From positions 2,016,001 to 2,080,000 of the forward strand of contig OY761159.2 of the NCBI GenBank assembly GCA_963664395.2: a stretch of DNA of 64,000 nucleotides, read 5' to 3'. How positions within the stretch are numbered: position 1 is the stretch's first letter; each line of letters starts with the position of its first letter. The notes beneath the pieces are model-generated. The model had not been told where the DNA came from. It was given only the letters and a program-made list of their open reading frames with translations, and searched no databases. This stretch comes from Candidatus Binatia bacterium. GTDB lineage: Bacteria > Desulfobacterota > Binatia > Bin18. The position numbers were made by a program, and so were the translations under genes. Positions 3,501 to 64,000 of the stretch are shown one piece after another.

Positions 3501-3916
3501 TGGTGACACGCTGGCCCTGTCCCCGATTAAAATCAATGAGAGCGGCACGGGGAACAGCGCGACGGTGACGGCGAGCCTGCCTACGACATCGAGCGTATCG
3601 AGCGGTGCTATCGAACTCACGGTCGCAGCCACGCCCGTCGAGCCGGCCACGGCCGCCGACTTTATGCTGAGTTCGACCACTACGCTGACCATTCCCGCCG
3701 AGGGGCGGACGAGCAGCGGCACGGTGACGCTGACGGCGGCGGACGACACTATCGACGAGCCGGACGAGACGGTGAGCGTGGAGGCTGACGGTCACGCAGG
3801 GCACGGCCACGGCCCCGGAGGCCGTCCTGCTGACCATCGCCGACACCGACAATCCGCCGACGCTGACGCTGATACTGACGCCAGCCTCGATCAGCGAGAA
3901 CGGCGGGGTGAGCACG

Positions 3917-4421
3917 GTGACGGCCACGCTGAGTCATGCGTCGAGCGCCGCTATCGCGGTGACGGTGTCGGCGGAACCCACGGCGCCGGCCACGGCGGCA
4001 GACTTTACGCTGAGCGGGGAGACGCTGACCTTTCCGGCCGGTGACAAGACCAGCACCGGCACGGTGACGACTTTCTGACGGCGGAGAACAACGATCTCGA
4101 CACCCCGGACAAGACGGTGACGGTGAAAGGAGAGGTGGACAGCTATGGCCTGCCGGGCACGATTGCGGCGGCCACGCAGACGCTGACCATCGACGGACGA
4201 CGATGCGCCGGTGGTGACCCTGGCGTTGTCGAACAGCACGATCGACGAGGGCGAGACGGTGGATGTGACGGCCACGCTGAGTCATGAGTCGAGCGCCGAT
4301 ATCACGGTCACGCTGTCGGCGGCGGCCGTGGACCCGGCCACGGCGGCAGACTTCACGCTGAGCAGGGGGAGACACGCTGACCTTCAAGGCCGGTGACAAG
4401 ACCAGCACCGGGGAGGTGACG
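3917..4421 (+). repeat. Internal direct repeat (~3917-4069 vs ~4265-4421) encoding Calx-beta-like domains
   Basis: gtgacggccacgctgagtcatg...ccggccacggcggcagactt...ggccggtgacaagaccagcaccgg present twice. Confidence 0.8.
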
Positions 4422-6595
4422 CTGACGGCGGTGAATGACGCCGTAGACGGGCCGGAGACCAAAGAGGTGACCGTGACGGGGACGGGGCCGACCGACCGCT
4501 CGGACATCACGGTGGCGGGGCCGGTGACGCTGACGATTACGGACAACGACACCCGTGGGGTGACGCTGGACGGCGGGGGGGCAGCCGATTCCGCCGGAAG
4601 GGCTGTCGATCACGGAAGGCGACACGGGCAGCTACACCGTGGTGCTGGACTCCCAGCCGACCGCCACCGTGGACGATTGCCGTGGCGTCCGATGACACGG
4701 CGGTCCACGTGAGTCCGACACCGCTGATGTTCACCAAGAGCGACTGGAAGACGCCAAGACCGTGACGATCCGCACGGAAGACGACGCGGACGGCGATGAT
4801 CTGGAGGCGACGATTACGCACACCGTGACGGGCGGCGACTACGAAGCCAATAACGTGCCGGCGGCGGATGTGGCGGTGACCGTGACGGATGACGAGAGTC
4901 CGTCCACGGGTGCGAGTTTGAGTGTGAATCCAACTTCAGTCGGAGAGGAAGAGGAAGATGCAGGCGAGACGGTGACGGTGACCGCGACGTTGAACCGGGC
5001 CGTGCTCCAGCAACCCACCGAGGTGACCGTCTCAGTCACGTCCGGGACGGCGGTGTCAGATACCGACTTCGACGCGGTGCAGGACTTCCCCCTGACGATT
5101 CCGGCGAACGCGAAGAGCGGCACGTGCGACCTTCACCCTGACGCCGGTGAACGATGACATCCACGAGCCGAACGAGACGGTCACGGTAAGTGGCACGGCG
5201 GCGGCCCTGTCGGATGGCGTGGAATCGCGGCGACGCTGACGATCACGGACAACGACAGCCCGCCGACGCTGGACCGGCTGGAGCTGGCGGAGACCCGGAT
5301 CGAGGAGAGTGGTGAGACCACCACCCTGACGGCGGTTCTGAGTAATCCGTCGAGTGTTGAGACGGTGGTCGGGCTGACGGTGCTGGCCGGGGCGGAGGCG
5401 GTCGAGTTGAGCGCGAGTGAGCTGACCATCCCGGCAGGGGAACCAAGCGGGACGGTGACGCTGACCGGAGTGGACAAAGCGGGCTACGGGTCGCACCGCC
5501 CGGTGACGCTGCGGGGGCGGGTGACCAGCCCGGCCTTGGGCGGACGTGTGGCTCGCACGACGAAGCCACCCTGACCGTCCTGGACGACGATCCGCCCACG
5601 GTAGGGGGCAAAGCCGAAGTCAACGTCATTGAGGGGAATAGGGAGGTGGACACGTACACCGCGGCGGACCCGGCGGGGGTCAGGCTGGTGTGGGCGGTGG
5701 ACGATCCGTCAATTTTGCCATTGACTCGAACGGGCGGCTGAGATTCCAGGCGGACCCGGACCACGAGACGCAACCCTCTTACAGCGTGACGGTCGAAGCG
5801 ACCGACCGGAGCCTGCCCGACGTACCGCTCACCGGTTCTCTGGCTGTCACCGTCACGGTGCGGGACGCCCCGGGCGAGGTGAGCCTGTCGCCGTCATCAC
5901 CCCAAGTCGGGCGGGTGCTCACAGCGACCGTAACGGACCCGGACGAGGTGAAGGCAGTCACCGAGTGGTGCTGGGAGCGGTCTGACTTCTCGGACTTCCA
6001 TGCCGAGACCGATGCGCTGTCCTGTACCGCTAGCGACCTGACCACGACGGCGACCTACGTGCCGGGGAATGCGGAGGTGAACCACTACCTACGGGCCATG
6101 GCGTCCTATACCGACGGCGATGAGACGACCAAGAGCAAGCCAGTGGCAGGGGTCTCGGATAACCAAGTCACAGCCCGGCCACCCCCGCCGCCACAGACAC
6201 GGCCCACACCAAGCAGGGGCGGCGGCGGCGGGGGTGGTGGCGGGGGTGGCGAGGTCCGCGACGACCATGGCAACATGCCGGCGCAGGCGACGCGGGTCAT
6301 GCTCAACGCCGCTCGGACCGCCTCCACGCCGGGGCAGTTCCATGCCCCGGACGATGTGGATTATTTTGAGGTACTGCTCCCGCAGGCCGGGCTGTTGGCG
6401 GTCGAGACGCGCGGGACCACCGATACGGTCGGCACGGTGTGGCAGGACGGAGCCATGCTGGCACGGGCCGACCGTGGGGGGGAGGGGCAGAACTTCCGGC
6501 TGCGCACCCCGGTGACGGCCGCGCCGGTGCTGGTGGCCGTGGAGGGGCAGGGCGGGACGACCGGGGCGTATACGCTGGAGGCACGTTTGTTGAAC

Positions 6596-58923: not shown

Positions 58924-60141
58924 ATGCACGCCATAGATTTTATTCTCCCACTCATCGCATTCGTTGTCGCCGCTCTTTTGCTTCTCCCGGCAATCAAGGA
59001 CAACACAGTCTGGAGAGCGAGCGTCACGCCGTTGGCCTCGATCATTGGCAGTGGCTTTTTGGTCGTCGCGCCGTTACTCGCCCTGGTCGTTGGCTGGGCG
59101 GCCCCTTTGGCGATGTTGGCCATCGTCGTCATCGCCTATGGCCTGGGAGAAATTTCACGATTTAACATTCGCCATGGCGAGCCCTTGCTGCAAAGCGGCG
59201 AAGCGCCGGCCTTGCTGGTGATGACCGAGCGCGTCGCGAATTTTACCCTTTCGCTGGCCTACATCATATCCGTCGCGTTTTACGTCAGGCTGTTGGCCTC
59301 CTTCGTGCTCACAGGCACCCGGTTAGACAGTGAAATCGGCGCACAGGTATTGACCACGCTGATTTTGCTATTCATCGGCTATGCCGGTTGGCACCGGGGC
59401 CTGGAGGGCCTGGTACGCATAGAAGAGTACTCGGTCAGCATAAAGTTGGCGATCATCGTGGCACTGCTATGCGGACTGGTGAATTATGACGCTACTGTCG
59501 ATTTTTCGATCCGTGATTTTCCGGCACCATCCACGTCAACGTGGGAACAACTCCGTCAACTCGCCGGTATGTTACTGGTGGTGCAGGGCTTTGAAACGTC
59601 ACGGTATCTTGGCACCGAATTTTCTGCGGAACTGCGCATCAGGAGTATGCGACTCGCCCAGATCATCTCGGGGCTAATCTACGTCGCATTTATTGTCATG
59701 TGCATGCCGCTGCTTCTCGGTCTGAACGGTCTGAGAGTGGACGAGACGGCGATTATCGGTCTCTCGGGTCACATTGCGATGGTCTTACCGGCCATGCTCG
59801 TTTTGGCCGCCGTCATGAGCCAATTCAGCGCGGCAGTCGCCGATACGGCCGGCGCCGGTGGACTGGTCGAAGAGGAAAGCGGAGGTCTGATATCAGCCCG
59901 ATACGCCTATGTGGCGGTGATCGGTTTGGGCATTGTATTGGTATGGACGACCGCTGTTTTCGAGATCATCGCCCTGGCTTCGCGGGCCTTTGCCGCCTAT
60001 TACTTGTCACAGGCGCTGAGTGCGTTTCAGATTGTCGGCTGTAGTTCCGGGGTCCGGTCGCGTCGGCTCGGCAGAATCTCCGTGGCCCTAGCCTCCATTG
60101 TGTTGGCCTGGATCGTCGTCTTCGCCGCGCCCGCAGATTAG
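58924..60141 (+). CDS. APC-superfamily-like membrane transporter
   Basis: VTPLASIIGSGFL, VQGFETSRY, ~11-12 TM. Confidence 0.65.
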   Translation: MHAIDFILPLIAFVVAALLLLPAIKDNTVWRASVTPLASIIGSGFLVVAPLLALVVGWAAPLAMLAIVVIAYGLGEISRFNIRHGEPLLQSGEAPALLVMTERVANFTLSLAYIISVAFYVRLLASFVLTGTRLDSEIGAQVLTTLILLFIGYAGWHRGLEGLVRIEEYSVSIKLAIIVALLCGLVNYDATVDFSIRDFPAPSTSTWEQLRQLAGMLLVVQGFETSRYLGTEFSAELRIRSMRLAQIISGLIYVAFIVMCMPLLLGLNGLRVDETAIIGLSGHIAMVLPAMLVLAAVMSQFSAAVADTAGAGGLVEEESGGLISARYAYVAVIGLGIVLVWTTAVFEIIALASRAFAAYYLSQALSAFQIVGCSSGVRSRRLGRISVALASIVLAWIVVFAAPAD

Positions 60142-60252: not shown

Positions 60253-61440
60253 ATGTCTGGACCATTGGCCGGTTATCGAATCATTGACGTCACCCAGATG
60301 TTGTCAGGCCCTATGGCCACCATGATGCTGGGCGATCAAGGGGCGGATGTCATCAAGGTCGAACCGCCGGACACGGGCGACCTGACCCGTGCCCTGGGTG
60401 GGAAGTCACGTCGCCTCTCACCGTTCTTTTCCACTTTGAATCGGAATAAGCGCTCGGTTGTCCTGAACCTGAAAGACGAAAAGGGGGTCGGGTTGCTCAA
60501 AGACCTCGTCGCCGGTGCGGATGTCTTTGTGCAGAATTTCCGGCCCGGGGCGGCTGAGCGTCTGGGGATTGGTGAGGACGTCCTGCGCAAGGTGAAACCG
60601 GACCTTATCTATGTGTCTATCAGCGGCTTTGGCGAAAAAGGGCCGTATGTCGGCAAGCGCGTGTATGATCCGGTTATCCAGGCGCTCTCCGGCTTGACCG
60701 ATATTCAAGCCGACCCGGACACCGGCCGACCACGTATGATGCGGCTTATCATTCCCGACAAAGTCACGGCCCTGACCGGAGCGCAGGCCATCACCGCCGC
60801 ACTCCTGGCCCGGGAACGGACTGGAGAGGGGCAACATGTCCGGCTCGCCATGTTGGACGCGGTCGTCTCGTTTCTGTGGCATGAGGGTATGACGCAGTAC
60901 ACCTTCATGGGTTCGGACATCGGGCCGGTACGACCGGCGGACACGCGGGACCTTATCTTTGATACCACAGATGGCTATATCACCGCAGCCGCGGTCTCGG
61001 ACAAGGAATGGCAGGGCATGACGCGCGCCCTTGAGAGACCGGAATGGCTGGAAGACGCCCGGTTCAGCACGCCTGCCGGGCGGGTCAAATATGCCGATGT
61101 ACGCTTGGAGATGACGGCCGAGGTCCTGAAAGAAAGAAGCTCGGCCGAATGGCTGGAACGCCTTGATGCCGAGCAGGTGCCGTGCGCTCCGGTCAATCGC
61201 AAGGCAGACGTGTTGACCGACCCGCAGGTTGCGGCCAACAATCTGATTGTTGAATCCGACCATCCGCACGCCGGCCACATGCGCCAAGCGCGCCCAGCCG
61301 CGCGATTTGAGGGGACACCTTCGGAACTCCTACGTCAGCCGGCCCCCCTGCTCGGCGAGCAGACCGACGCAATTCTGGCCGAGCTGGGCCTGTCCGCAGA
61401 CCGGCTGGCAGAGTTGCGTGAAGCCGGCACGATTGCCTGA
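60253..61440 (+). CDS. CaiB/BaiF class III CoA transferase
   Basis: GPLAG.RIID, GADVIKVE, NRNKRS, NFRPG, APLLGEQT. Confidence 0.92.
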   Translation: MSGPLAGYRIIDVTQMLSGPMATMMLGDQGADVIKVEPPDTGDLTRALGGKSRRLSPFFSTLNRNKRSVVLNLKDEKGVGLLKDLVAGADVFVQNFRPGAAERLGIGEDVLRKVKPDLIYVSISGFGEKGPYVGKRVYDPVIQALSGLTDIQADPDTGRPRMMRLIIPDKVTALTGAQAITAALLARERTGEGQHVRLAMLDAVVSFLWHEGMTQYTFMGSDIGPVRPADTRDLIFDTTDGYITAAAVSDKEWQGMTRALERPEWLEDARFSTPAGRVKYADVRLEMTAEVLKERSSAEWLERLDAEQVPCAPVNRKADVLTDPQVAANNLIVESDHPHAGHMRQARPAARFEGTPSELLRQPAPLLGEQTDAILAELGLSADRLAELREAGTIA

Positions 61441-61459
61441 CGCCTGGCCTCCATAAGAA

Positions 61460-61756
61460 ATGAAACTCCTTGGGCGAGCTGTCCGATGGAACGCTGAGAA
61501 AAACATACAACTCCAAGAAGAAAGAAATGTCAGTTTTGAGAAGATTGTGGCGGCAATAGCGGCAGGCAACCTATTGGACGACTTGAAACATCCCAACTGG
61601 GAACGCTATCCGCGTCAACGGCAGTTTGTCGTTTCGTTCAATAGATACGCTTACGTCGTCCCTTATGTAGAAGAAGAAAACGATACGTATTTTCTCAAGA
61701 CAATTTATCCAAGTAGAGCCATGACGAAGAAATATCTTGGACAAGGTGGGGACTAG
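61460..61756 (+). CDS. BrnT-like toxin (RelE-fold ribonuclease)
   Basis: WNAEKN..L..ERNVSFE, HPN..RYP.Q, YVVPYV, FLKTIYPSR..TKKYL. Confidence 0.82.
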   Translation: MKLLGRAVRWNAEKNIQLQEERNVSFEKIVAAIAAGNLLDDLKHPNWERYPRQRQFVVSFNRYAYVVPYVEEENDTYFLKTIYPSRAMTKKYLGQGGD

Positions 61757-61758
61757 CC

Positions 61759-63051
61759 ATGCCCGACGAATATATCCACGAAGAGCCGCTAGATGAAGAA
61801 GAACGGCAGTTGGCTAAAGAACTGGAAGCCGGAGAGTGGGTATCCGATCCAAACTCCGTCATTACAGGCTCGGCCGTAGAGACCGTATCTGCGCTCGAAG
61901 CAGCGGCCGACGAGCTCGAACGCGCCCAAGGAGACCCGTACCGGTGGAAATGGGTCATCCTGACTCTTCATAGCGCTGTTCAAGGCATGATGGCCTTGGT
62001 ACTGAAAGGCAGTAATGGGCTCAATGTACTGAAATCCGATGACGCGAAACGATGGCTGGACGCTTATGAAAACGGCGCGCCGCTTCTGGCGGATTTGGAA
62101 ATGGATAGTTTCCTCAACCTGTACAAGAAGATCAAAAGTGACACTGTACGCTTCTATATAGACAGCGAAAAGTTCACGCCTCAAGGAACCCAAGGGCGGT
62201 CTATCAAACTACTGAACCAGCTTAGGAACCAGTTCATACACTTCACTCCGTGTACCTTCATCCTCGTGCGTAACGGACTACCCAAGATGACGCTGGATTG
62301 CCTCAACATTGCCCGTTTTCTCGCGGATGGCTTGAAGAACATAGCCTGGCCTGAAGACCTGGGGGGGCGGACGGAGAGAGCCTTCACAGCCGCTGATAAG
62401 GCAGCACAGGGGATGGAACAGGGTTCCGATCCTACCTTTGTCGTTACAGATGAATTTGTGGAAACAATTTCTGCGCTCGAAGCAACAGCCGACGAGATTC
62501 AGCACGTCCAAGCAGACCCGTACCGGTGGAAAGGGGTCATCCTGGCTCTTCATAGCGCTGTTCAAGGCATGATGACCTTAGCACTAAGAGGTACTAATAA
62601 TCTAAAGGTGCTGAAACCCGAAGATGAGAAACGCTTCCTGGAGGCTGTTAAAAGCGATGCACCGCTTCCGGCGGATATGAAAATGGACGATTTTCTCAGT
62701 CTGTATAAGAAGATCAAAAGTGAAGACATGCTTTTTTACGTAAACTCCGAAAAGTTTACGCCCCAAGGAACCGAAGGGCAATCTCTCAAGGCTCTCAACC
62801 GGCTCCGGGATCGGTACGTTCACTTCATTCCGTGCGCATTTATCCTTCGAGTCAACGGACTGCCAGAAATGACAATCGATTGCCTCAACATTGCTTGGTT
62901 TCTTGCATGGAACTCGAATAATGTCGGCTGGGACGTAAAAGACAATGAGGACGAGTTGGTTGAGCGGGCGAAAAGAGCGCTCACAGCCGCGTCTAAGGCA
63001 GTACAGGAGATAAAAGAAGCCTACGCTCTCCCGCCTTATAAATCGTTATGA
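61759..63051 (+). CDS. Antitoxin-like N-terminus fused to two tandem HEPN-like domains
   Basis: LDEEERQL..ELEAGEWVS N-terminus; 194-aa duplication; RxxxxH motifs RNQFIH and RDRYVH. Confidence 0.7.
   Translation: MPDEYIHEEPLDEEERQLAKELEAGEWVSDPNSVITGSAVETVSALEAAADELERAQGDPYRWKWVILTLHSAVQGMMALVLKGSNGLNVLKSDDAKRWLDAYENGAPLLADLEMDSFLNLYKKIKSDTVRFYIDSEKFTPQGTQGRSIKLLNQLRNQFIHFTPCTFILVRNGLPKMTLDCLNIARFLADGLKNIAWPEDLGGRTERAFTAADKAAQGMEQGSDPTFVVTDEFVETISALEATADEIQHVQADPYRWKGVILALHSAVQGMMTLALRGTNNLKVLKPEDEKRFLEAVKSDAPLPADMKMDDFLSLYKKIKSEDMLFYVNSEKFTPQGTEGQSLKALNRLRDRYVHFIPCAFILRVNGLPEMTIDCLNIAWFLAWNSNNVGWDVKDNEDELVERAKRALTAASKAVQEIKEAYALPPYKSL
61843..63000 (+). repeat. Intragenic tandem duplication, 582-bp period
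   Basis: tccgatcc at 61843/62425; tctgcgctcgaagca and gacccgtaccggtggaaa...cttcatagcgctgttcaaggcatgatg in both halves. Confidence 0.9.
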
Positions 63052-63224: not shown

Positions 63225-64000
63225 TCACTGATCAGATGTGAAAATCTTCCAGAGCTTGTAGGCTCCGTAGCCAACACCCGCAGCGGCGGCCACAGGTGCT
63301 GCCGCTACAAGGGCGGTTCCAGCGACCATCCCGCCGCCCACGGTACCCCCTATAGCTGCGAGACCGCTCGCAATCCCCGCCCCACTGAGCCCTGCGGTGG
63401 CTCCGGCTGCGCTCACAGCAGCAATACCCCCTGCGGTGGCTGCCGCTGCTCCTCCATATGTGGCTTTTCGCGCTACGGAACGAGCCGCCCGTTCCTCCGA
63501 AGGAACGTTTGGATCGTCCTTGAACACTGTATTGTTAAGGGCAGAAGCCATTCCTGCACCGCCTACGCCTCCTAAGACGCCAATACCGGCAACCGCTCCG
63601 CCACCAACAACTCCACCGGTGGTGGCTAAACCCGACATAATGCCAGAGCCCGAAAGACCGGCAACTGTACCCTGCGAAGCGACTGCCGCGATTGCACCTT
63701 TCCTAGCGCCTTGGGTCAAAAGAAGCGTTGTAAAAGCCGCAGTACGGTTCACCTGCTTGGAATCATGGTCTCCCGTAATACACCAAGAGACGAAGTGCTC
63801 GCAGTTGTTTCCCCATATGGAATATCCGCCCTTTCCGATACACGATTTGGCTCTCTTCACAGCTTCGTCTGAGGAAAAGCGACGAGATTGATATGCATGG
63901 GTCTTGATATCTCCGCCACGAGCGAACTGATCGAGGGAGGTACGGCGAACACGTCCCTTTGCCGGACCGTCCATAGGCTCGGAGTAGTGAATGACGCCTC
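63225..64000 (-). CDS. LRAT-family (permuted NlpC/P60) protein with glycine-zipper C-terminus; 5' end outside window
   Basis: VIHYS at window edge, Y.IWGNNCEHFVSWC; two GLSG.GI.SGLA..GG.VGGG.VAG repeats. Confidence 0.82.
   Translation of the reverse strand, partial: GVIHYSEPMDGPAKGRVRRTSLDQFARGGDIKTHAYQSRRFSSDEAVKRAKSCIGKGGYSIWGNNCEHFVSWCITGDHDSKQVNRTAAFTTLLLTQGARKGAIAAVASQGTVAGLSGSGIMSGLATTGGVVGGGAVAGIGVLGGVGGAGMASALNNTVFKDDPNVPSEERAARSVARKATYGGAAAATAGGIAAVSAAGATAGLSGAGIASGLAAIGGTVGGGMVAGTALVAAAPVAAAAGVGYGAYKLWKIFTSDQ

Follow-up and report, generated by a model that had tools for sequence, protein, structure and literature searches.

A BrnT-like toxin gene and a putative antitoxin with two HEPN-like domains form a candidate toxin-antitoxin pair in a Candidatus Binatia genome

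We analysed two adjacent genes in a 64,000-nucleotide stretch of Candidatus Binatia DNA (GenBank assembly GCA_963664395.2, contig OY761159.2, positions 2,016,001 to 2,080,000, forward strand), referred to here as the window. The first encodes a BrnT-like protein of 98 amino acids (P0001, the toxin protein), and the second a protein of 430 amino acids (P0002, the partner protein) with an antitoxin-like N-terminus followed by two copies of a HEPN-like domain. Both open reading frames (ORFs), and the 2 bp between toxin stop and partner start, are as described in an earlier note made from the sequence alone. All evidence presented here is computational and comes from uncultured organisms. The features of the locus, in window numbering, are:

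61460..61756, + strand: toxin gene P0001, 98 amino acids, divergent BrnT/DUF497-DUF4258 type of the RelE-like ribonuclease (RNase) superfamily (ORF; weak PF04365 match; relatives paired with PF12441 antitoxins)
61759..63051, + strand: chimeric partner gene P0002, 430 amino acids, putative antitoxin N-terminus and two HEPN-like domains (ORF; 13 tandem homologue clusters)
61780..61857, + strand: P0002 residues 8–33, EEPLDEEERQLAKELEAGEWVSDPNS, PF12441-like segment, presumed toxin-binding peptide (hhalign)
61858..62424, + strand: HEPN-like repeat 1, P0002 residues 34–222 (internal repeat; structural matches with Z 8.3–8.8)
62224..62241, + strand: R-x4-H motif of repeat 1, R156-N-Q-F-I-H161 (RNQFIH); R156, N157 and H161 invariant in 14 of 14 tandem proteins
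62440..63021, + strand: HEPN-like repeat 2, P0002 residues 228–421 (AlphaFold2 model; structural matches with Z up to 9.4)
62806..62823, + strand: R-x4-H motif of repeat 2, R350-D-R-Y-V-H355 (RDRYVH); R350, D351 and H355 invariant
60253..61440, + strand: CoA-transferase family III gene, conserved left neighbour (PF02515, E 1e-109)

P0001 has 36 relatives in a large protein collection, some of them pre-annotated as PF04365/DUF497. In a scan of 35 aligned family members, BrnT_toxin is found in 23 (best E 5.6e-7) and DUF4258 in 10 (E <= 0.01). P0001 itself gives E 0.03 with DUF4258 in Pfam. Two results count against a BrnT assignment. The PF04365 (BrnT_toxin) match of P0001 (E 0.0029, 18.3 bits) lies below the cut-off of 34.5, and the family profile finds one 'toxin' chain among solved structures, 7vd7_A, whose E of 0.44 is not significant; the alignment places an Arg of the P0001 subfamily where the 'KHG' of BrnT has its His. 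Since the score of P0001 is below the cut-off and only its relatives match, we call it BrnT-like; on sequence grounds, it is best described as a divergent sister subfamily of the RelE-like RNase assemblage, not as a certified BrnT/DUF497 member. The BrnT likeness of P0001 itself is thus weaker than the earlier note claims.

Relatives of P0001 are present in 45 of 301 genomes of the phylum, and in 28 of 29 fetched loci of the same phylum the gene directly 3' of them encodes an antitoxin of 77–109 amino acids. These canonical antitoxins start with L-D-x-EE-x-E-L-x-S-x-E-x-GEW (or, with K at two of the x positions, L-D-x-EE-K-E-L-x-S-x-E-K-GEW) and carry a C-terminal stretch of the ribbon-helix-helix (RHH) type, K-R-I-N-I-R ... 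G-I-P-Y-Q-T-L-I-S-S-I-I-H-K-Y; all 16 that were aligned match PF12441 (CopG_antitoxin). The pairing of COG2929/DUF497 toxins with RHH antitoxins of COG5304/COG3514 is among those described by Makarova et al. 2009 (PMC2701414).

P0002 starts with MPDEYIHEEPLDEEERQLAKELEAGEWVSDPNS. When the canonical antitoxins (A4) are compared with 16 chimeric proteins (A5) by hhalign, residues 8–33 align with a probability of 91.7% and E 7.8e-7 over 26 columns. Among the 99,102 segments of the six-frame translated genome, a plain hidden Markov model (HMM) built from the canonical antitoxins ranks the P0002 N-terminus third at E 0.47; the likeness is therefore significant when this single ORF is tested, but not genome-wide. 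Only positions 4–29 of the HMM align to P0002, the RHH part has no counterpart, and a Pfam scan of P0002 found no DNA-binding domain. P0002 thus appears to keep the neutralising end of an antitoxin, with the DNA-binding end gone. This agrees with the chimera that had been proposed, in which the N-terminus is antitoxin-like and a duplicated domain replaces the expected DNA-binding C-terminus. The linker 'DPDFPSKKPHFEQVARATLAET', kept in some relatives with one domain (P0018–P0022 and P0028), looks by eye like the canonical pre-RHH stretch K-K-x-Y-x-E-Y-A-R-x-T-L-x-K.

The structure of a BrnT–BrnA complex has already been solved. We predicted the complex of P0001 with P0002 residues 1–45, a check suggested in the earlier note, and obtained a score of 0.52, compared with 0.00 for the best of three controls; the result is graded 'weak support'. 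The runs agree in at least 76% of contacts, and the partner has a predicted local distance difference test score (pLDDT) of at least 61. Of the solved complexes, 116 of 157 reached the mark for the complex score, as did 2 of 215 mismatched pairs; at scores of 0.60 or under, only 18 of the 157 did so, together with both passing mismatches. Because of the solved BrnT–BrnA complex, the pass of toxin and tail may reflect likeness.

The remainder of P0002 consists of a domain present twice, each copy with an RxxxxH motif (residues 156–161 and 350–355), as had been noticed before. Residues 34–222 and 228–421 are identical at 113 of 188 aligned positions (60%; blastp E 1e-78 to 5e-80), and at the DNA level the repeat has a period of 582 nucleotides with 71–77% identity. 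P0002 has no match among the Pfam, NCBIfam and PADLOC models. A profile search of 1.84 billion representatives places the domain in a family of 1816 clusters at 50% identity (E <= 0.001), of which 1238 reach E <= 1e-10; most of the 150 listed are proteins of about 200 amino acids that consist of this domain alone, and a few have N- or C-terminal additions. Eight members of 375–435 amino acids (P0095, P0100, P0114, P0117, P0143, P0165, P0187 and P0191) have an extra N-terminal region of about 180 amino acids without a Pfam match, which looks like two units of about 90 amino acids ('…F…LR.WL..L…R.H.G.RF…' twice). This region may be a separate uncharacterised module fused to the HEPN-like domain.

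The motif is strongly conserved. In 114 family members, W-K-W, a His and a Gln of helix 2 and L...R-N-x-F-I-H-F-x-P are near-invariant, and the R, N and H of the motif are kept in at least 90%. R-x4-H is found in 143 of the 147 top representatives, with Asn after the Arg in 130 of those 143. In all 14 tandem proteins, the R and H of both motifs and the His and Gln of helix 2 are invariant. Without exception, the full tandem proteins also carry R-N in their first and R-D in their second repeat (14 of 14), and 16 of 18 one-domain relatives have R-N; this asymmetry between the tandem repeats is fixed.

We modelled repeat 2 with AlphaFold2 from 114 sequences (pLDDT 95.9; predicted template modelling score, pTM, 0.91). 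The model has helices at 6–22 and 28–50, an insert with helices 61–72 and 86–93, helices 113–128 and 142–159, and an extra C-terminal helix at 171–197; the motif (R124–H129 in model numbering) closes helix 113–128 and is thus located at the end of helix 3. An exhaustive structural aligner, run against 48,161 chains, places 5yep_B first (Z 9.4, rmsd 3.2, 120 residues aligned), followed by 1ufb_A (9.2), 4nqf_B (9.1), 2hsb_A (8.9), 8xdj_A (8.7), 1wwp_B (8.3) and AbiA (8.3); Roquin, the sacsin HEPN domain, the HEPN toxin 7ae2, YutE, ST0689, Csm6, AbiV and Swt1 follow lower down. The best solved matches are thus mostly HEPN proteins. In the full-length model of P0002 (pLDDT 84.6, pTM 0.83), residues 1–30 are of low confidence with one helix at 13–23, and repeat 1 (residues 31–202) yields the same list of HEPN matches with Z 8.3–8.8. 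This pTM speaks for a confidently predicted packing of the domains and for no more than that. Spanning both repeats, there is a weak alignment to 9fcv_A, a Cas nuclease chain (Z 5.8, rmsd 6.3, 211 residues aligned).

Several results weigh against a HEPN assignment. The aligner's own caveat is that Z values under about 13 can come from a common arrangement of helical bundles. Foldseek finds no match to the repeat model in the PDB at E <= 0.001 (best, Csm6 5yjc_B at E 0.1). Sequence models of HEPN families give nothing significant for the domain. The sub-threshold Pfam hints are confined to 4 of 43 relatives (HEPN_Swt1 at E 0.01 in one, DUF3644 at E 0.03–0.1 in three), with no match above cut-off for the domain itself in any of the 43. 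An hhalign comparison with eight DUF3644 domains from the phylum gives a probability of 9% and aligns only the L-R-N/D-x3-H stretch. Foldseek against viral models has no match at E <= 0.001, and a PDB sequence-profile search with the domain family gives chance matches only (E >= 0.6). The best Foldseek rows include Csm6, MntA-HepT and HepS at E 0.1–0.5, and the nearest named ESM Atlas clusters (scores 0.77–0.81, to be taken as leads only) are YopA_C and three HEPN families.

Since the Z values are within reach of generic helical bundles, we checked the hallmarks of the family. Sections 6–7 of the 2013 HEPN survey (PMC3710099) give R-x4-6-H at the end of helix 3, usually with N, D or H after the R, and the same survey places HEPN inserts between helices 2 and 3. 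All three are seen in the repeat model: the motif closes helix 3, a polar N or D follows the R, and the insert lies between helices 2 and 3. The predicted structure thus makes it very probable that the repeated domain has the HEPN fold. The HEPN reading of the earlier note is upheld by predicted fold and motif position, but not by any significant sequence or profile match; likewise, the Foldseek check that it suggested finds no match at E <= 0.001 in the PDB, while the exhaustive aligner puts HEPN proteins on top.

The close relatives of P0002 belong to Candidatus Binatia. We found matches in 19 of 401 Binatia genomes (own genome included), and P0002 is single-copy in its 5.04-Mb genome. Two of the 19 (own genome and G401) have toxin and tandem partner, six have the toxin with a one-domain partner of 231–244 amino acids, and three have a bare domain without tail and without toxin. 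In another (L058), a one-domain partner lies next to the last 18 codons of the toxin only. The remaining seven hold N-terminal fragments or remnants, none with a toxin. No toxin without partner was seen in these loci. Four of the seven are ORFs of 53–63 amino acids in a sister genus that comprise tail and linker (L068:1477–1638, L069:1459–1620 (−), L070:1477–1638 and L071:1471–1662 (−); sequence …EEPLDEEERQLIRELEAGEW…FEQVARATLAKQ); tblastn found no toxin gene beside them, and they are either orphan mini-antitoxins or remnants.

A complete pair is present in seven Binatia genomes besides our own, always with the toxin gene immediately 5' of the partner and with a gap of 2 bp in six; in L006, the toxin ORF as called overlaps the partner by 34 nucleotides. 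The pair of toxin and chimera is confined to one Binatia lineage, and the same CoA-transferase gene precedes it in all seven of these loci (L002–L008), while the DNA 3' of the pair varies among related loci. The one-domain form, found in six of the eight complete pairs from the 401 Binatia genomes, is the ancestral and commoner one, and the tandem is a later elaboration.

The way in which the locus decays, with partners or tails left after the toxin has gone (L058 and the seven genomes with remnants), fits an antitoxin role of the partner. It also bears on a reversal of roles, in which the tandem-HEPN protein would be the killer and the BrnT-like protein its regulator or antidote. HEPN proteins do act as toxins in HEPN-MNT and RnlA-type systems, according to PDB titles and to the abstract of PMC11586414. 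Here, however, the partner has an antitoxin-type N-terminus and persists where the toxin is deleted, the toxin gene comes first as in canonical pairs, and forms of about 200 amino acids with the solo domain are widespread. We therefore regard reversed roles as very improbable.

The tandem form itself recurs in 13 further clusters at 90% identity (412–429 amino acids, 55–94% identical), some on contigs of 4.5–5.1 Mb, and a second genome has it at the same place (L002/L055). Compared with one other tandem DNA copy (one pair, Nei-Gojobori method), the ratio of nonsynonymous to synonymous substitution (dN/dS) is 0.25 for the toxin, 0.31 for repeat 1 and 0.20 for repeat 2; both repeats are thus under purifying selection, as the earlier note had suspected from the two open halves. 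Its suggested search for the same architecture and synteny is answered by the 13 tandem clusters and the seven complete pairs. Its picture of a tandem system stands as regards the pair and the duplicated domain, but the tandem is not the basic form and the domain is not private to the system.

The locus is prone to rearrangement, as indicated by P0016 (288 amino acids), in which a partial internal duplication repeats the tail and the first helices, and by P0025 (246 amino acids), in which a truncated toxin is in frame with the partner. These two cases, together with the truncated remnants in relatives, could be taken to mean that the tandem was created by faulty assembly, or that it arose by recombination and is now decaying without a function. 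Such an origin is scarcely credible given the 13 further clusters, some on megabase contigs, the copy at the same place in a second genome, and two halves that are both open with dN/dS of 0.2–0.3. An assembly artefact or one-off junction, which the earlier note had itself considered, is ruled out on these grounds.

A maximum-likelihood tree puts the 13 repeat-1 sequences in a clade of their own (100/99), and likewise the 13 repeat-2 sequences (100/99). The repeat-2 clade groups with the one-domain proteins P0018–P0022 and P0028 to the exclusion of the repeat-1 clade (98/95), and P0015, the outlier among the tandem proteins, has both its repeats in this repeat-2/one-domain group. A simple recent duplication in place is rejected, as repeat 2 sides with one-domain proteins and not with repeat 1 (98/95). 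The tandem may instead stem from an old duplication, from recombination between alleles or from two origins, which a polytomy in the tree does not separate. The one-domain partner of a related strain, present in two RNA-library runs (X19 and X20), aligns by turns to pieces of repeat 1 and repeat 2, with joints at 62181/62764, 62877/62296 and 62386/63016. This alignment shows that the two repeats are mosaic relative to one-domain alleles.

Outside Binatia, the domain is found alone, without tail and without a BrnT-like gene, in 16 loci (Desulfobacterota-type, Latescibacterota, Actinomycetes and other metagenome-assembled genomes). Several of these solo members are next to genes of restriction or abortive infection. 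The genes around them encode, among others, a DUF4145 (HEPN) protein, Mrr proteins and methylases, a Type ISP restriction enzyme, AIPR and FRG proteins, Schlafen AlbA_2, an ATPase of the AAA_16/NACHT-like type, HigBA, a transposase and an integrase. In L010 (3273–3911 and 3917–4591; same in L011), a DUF4145 (HEPN-family) gene is followed after 6 bp by a solo member, giving two HEPN-type genes in a row; the island in L010/L011 also holds two Mrr-type endonuclease genes and a DNA methylase. In a Latescibacterota locus (L013:3423–3722 and 3869–4492), a helix-turn-helix gene and a weak DUF4258-like gene (E 7e-4) are followed after 147 bp by a solo member. This may be an independent association of the domain with the same toxin superfamily.

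No neighbour of the solo members is conserved in 12 loci. The domain alone is therefore either not toxic or not active, a point against an RNase role for the module. An inert module would be a dimerising scaffold that replaces the RHH domain, or a sensor or RNA-binding platform, leaving the BrnT-like toxin as the sole nuclease. Non-catalytic HEPN domains are indeed described in the HEPN survey (PMC3710099), the solo members lack a conserved inhibitor gene nearby, and the partner survives without its toxin in L058. The R-D of the second repeat, set against the R-N of the family, could also mean that one half-site is relaxed, but Asp after the Arg is a usual HEPN variant according to section 6 of that survey. 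Furthermore, a scaffold needs neither the R and H of both motifs nor the helix-2 His and Gln, all invariant in the 14 tandem proteins, and at least 90% of the 114 family members retain the R, N and H. We thus consider an inert module unlikely.

The stop codon of the CoA-transferase gene lies 19 bp from the toxin start. Since the RHH domain is lost and there is no room for a promoter, the pair is probably transcribed together with this gene instead of being autoregulated through an operator. We found no operator-like inverted repeat near the toxin start. Parts of the stretch are present in four metatranscriptome runs. Contigs of two runs, at least 99% identical, bridge the junction of CoA-transferase and toxin genes (61167–61494 and 61322–61574) as well as that of toxin and partner (61730–62005 and 61649–61816); the other two runs hold a 1972-nucleotide contig of a related strain with the CoA-transferase gene, a diverged toxin gene and a one-domain partner in this order. 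These contigs hint that the pair is expressed and that read-through occurs from the CoA-transferase gene. Two caveats apply: contigs of RNA libraries may contain DNA and prove neither transcription nor a single transcript, and a scan for promoters and terminators gave nothing above shuffled sequences (2 promoters found, 1.3 expected). Parts of the window without such contigs are no evidence of silence.

The lost RHH domain and the 19-bp gap would also suit a HEPN RNase that is part of the antidote and cuts the toxin's own mRNA in a type V-like manner, thereby replacing RHH autoregulation. A precedent is the Acidovorax citrulli antitoxin, described as binding a BrnT-like toxin and cutting its mRNA without binding the promoter (PMC10714953). 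That antitoxin is, however, described there as BrnA-like, with no HEPN domain reported. The sequence gives no RNA target, and solo members near restriction, AIPR and Schlafen-type genes point to a general role in conflict rather than to regulation of one operon. We consider an mRNA-cutting antidote improbable.

The toxin and partner genes have a G+C content of 0.48–0.53, compared with 0.58–0.64 on both flanks. Their neighbours are the CoA-transferase III gene and an LRAT-family gene, and no nucleotidyltransferase gene is adjacent. The LRAT-family protein (PF04970, E 4.7e-15; window 63225–63974 (−)), encoded just downstream of the pair, has a long Gly/Ala-rich C-terminal half. About 3.5 kb (genome ~63050–66540 in window numbering) have no counterpart in four related genomes (L002, L004, L007 and L008), and the right flank of the pair is thus a variable spot. 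On the left, an ORF of 405 amino acids (window 58924–60141 (+)), hydrophobic by eye and without a Pfam match, is partly absent from related loci L002, L004, L005 and L007.

That the two genes form a toxin-antitoxin pair with a HEPN-fold chimeric antitoxin is, in our view, probable. As the best explanation of the whole, we favour on balance a type II-like BrnT/COG2929 pair in which the antitoxin has undergone a domain swap and is possibly enzymatic. The toxin would be a small RNase-type protein of the RelE superfamily, and the N-terminal segment of about 25 residues in the partner would bind and neutralise it. The RHH domain, which binds DNA and dimerises, would have been lost, and its place taken by a HEPN-fold domain whose source would be a large family of conflict-associated proteins that occur solo. 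HEPN domains generally dimerise, and the active site of the metal-independent HEPN RNases is a composite of two juxtaposed R-x4-H motifs. In the one-domain relatives, dimerisation of the HEPN domain would restore a 2:2 complex; in the tandem form, one chain would be a pseudo-dimer with a single toxin-binding tail, changing the complex from 2:2 to 1:1. We take the HEPN module to be, most probably, a second RNase in latent form, or at the least a module that binds RNA, more than a scaffold, because R-[ND]-x3-H and the helix-2 His and Gln are kept family-wide and only catalysis or substrate binding explains them. Catalytic activity as such, judged from these conserved residues, is a possibility that we hold with slightly more doubt than confidence.

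A bolder and, taken as a whole, rather unlikely extension is a two-RNase conflict module of an undescribed kind. Its antitoxin would be a latent HEPN RNase, a single-chain asymmetric pseudo-dimer with R-N and R-D half-sites that is tethered to a BrnT-type RNase by a peptide borrowed from an antitoxin, and each enzyme would check the other until infection, stress or some other trigger parted them. The same extension would make the domain of about 190 amino acids a large unannotated family of HEPN RNases (at least 1816 clusters at 50% identity) that act as solo proteins of defence islands.

As in BrnT–BrnA and COG2929/DUF497–COG5304/COG3514 pairs (PF12441, PF14384), described in PMC2701414, a toxin of the same superfamily comes first here, the partner follows within a few bases and the N-terminal segment is homologous. 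In contrast to them, the RHH domain is replaced by one HEPN-like domain (relatives) or two (P0002), the toxin is below the Pfam cut-off, and there is no intergenic room for an operator of its own. The only described two-RNase pair of the BrnT type that we found is the 'double-ribonuclease' pair Aave_1720–Aave_1719 of Acidovorax citrulli, with a BrnT-like RNase toxin and an antitoxin that is an RNase in its own right and binds the toxin but not the promoter (PMC10714953). Its antitoxin is described as BrnA-like, with no HEPN domain reported, whereas the second RNase proposed here is predicted from a HEPN fold.

The type VII HEPN-MNT (HepT–MntA) systems provide the best structural matches (5yep_B, 8xdj_A and 7ae2_A) and are likewise two-gene conflict modules with small R-x4-H HEPN proteins. 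Here, however, no nucleotidyltransferase gene is adjacent, the HEPN protein takes the antitoxin position and has an antitoxin tail, and the domain of about 190 amino acids has a long insert and an extra C-terminal helix. Like Cas13, a single-chain double-HEPN enzyme, P0002 has two HEPN-like domains in one chain, each with R-x4-H; Csm6, RnlA and Las1 are obligate HEPN dimers to which the tandem can be compared. P0002 has no guide-RNA apparatus and no sequence relation to these proteins, and it is known here from sequence and predicted fold. The two HEPN domains of Cas13 are highly diverged, in contrast to the 60% identical repeats of P0002.

Type II antitoxins usually consist of a neutralising peptide and a DNA-binding domain, and P0002 differs from type II systems generally in having no such domain for autoregulation of the operon. 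Partner swapping in the NetFlax networks of type II systems (PMC10440598) resembles what we see, in that antitoxin modules recombine and a short neutralising element is kept. The main text of that study names neither BrnT nor DUF497, mentions HEPN only as a toxin-side or ATPase-linked nuclease, and does not list the BrnT–HEPN combination. In the literature that we searched, no paper pairs a BrnT/DUF497 toxin with a HEPN-domain partner or describes the domain family, which the additional files of the 2013 HEPN survey (PMC3710099) may list. Toxin type, neutralising segment and fold class are known, and their combination and the single-chain doubled form are undescribed in that literature.

That the DNA-binding half has been exchanged for an enzyme-type fold neatly shows, in a natural case, how modular antitoxins are. 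Should the HEPN module prove active, the pair would be the second two-RNase toxin-antitoxin pair, mechanistically unlike the first. The large HEPN-like family has no Pfam, NCBIfam or PADLOC model and is left blank by genome annotation and by defence-system finders. One- and two-domain forms occurring side by side represent a natural experiment in the step from HEPN homodimer to single-chain asymmetric pseudo-dimer, a step that must also underlie Cas13-like enzymes.

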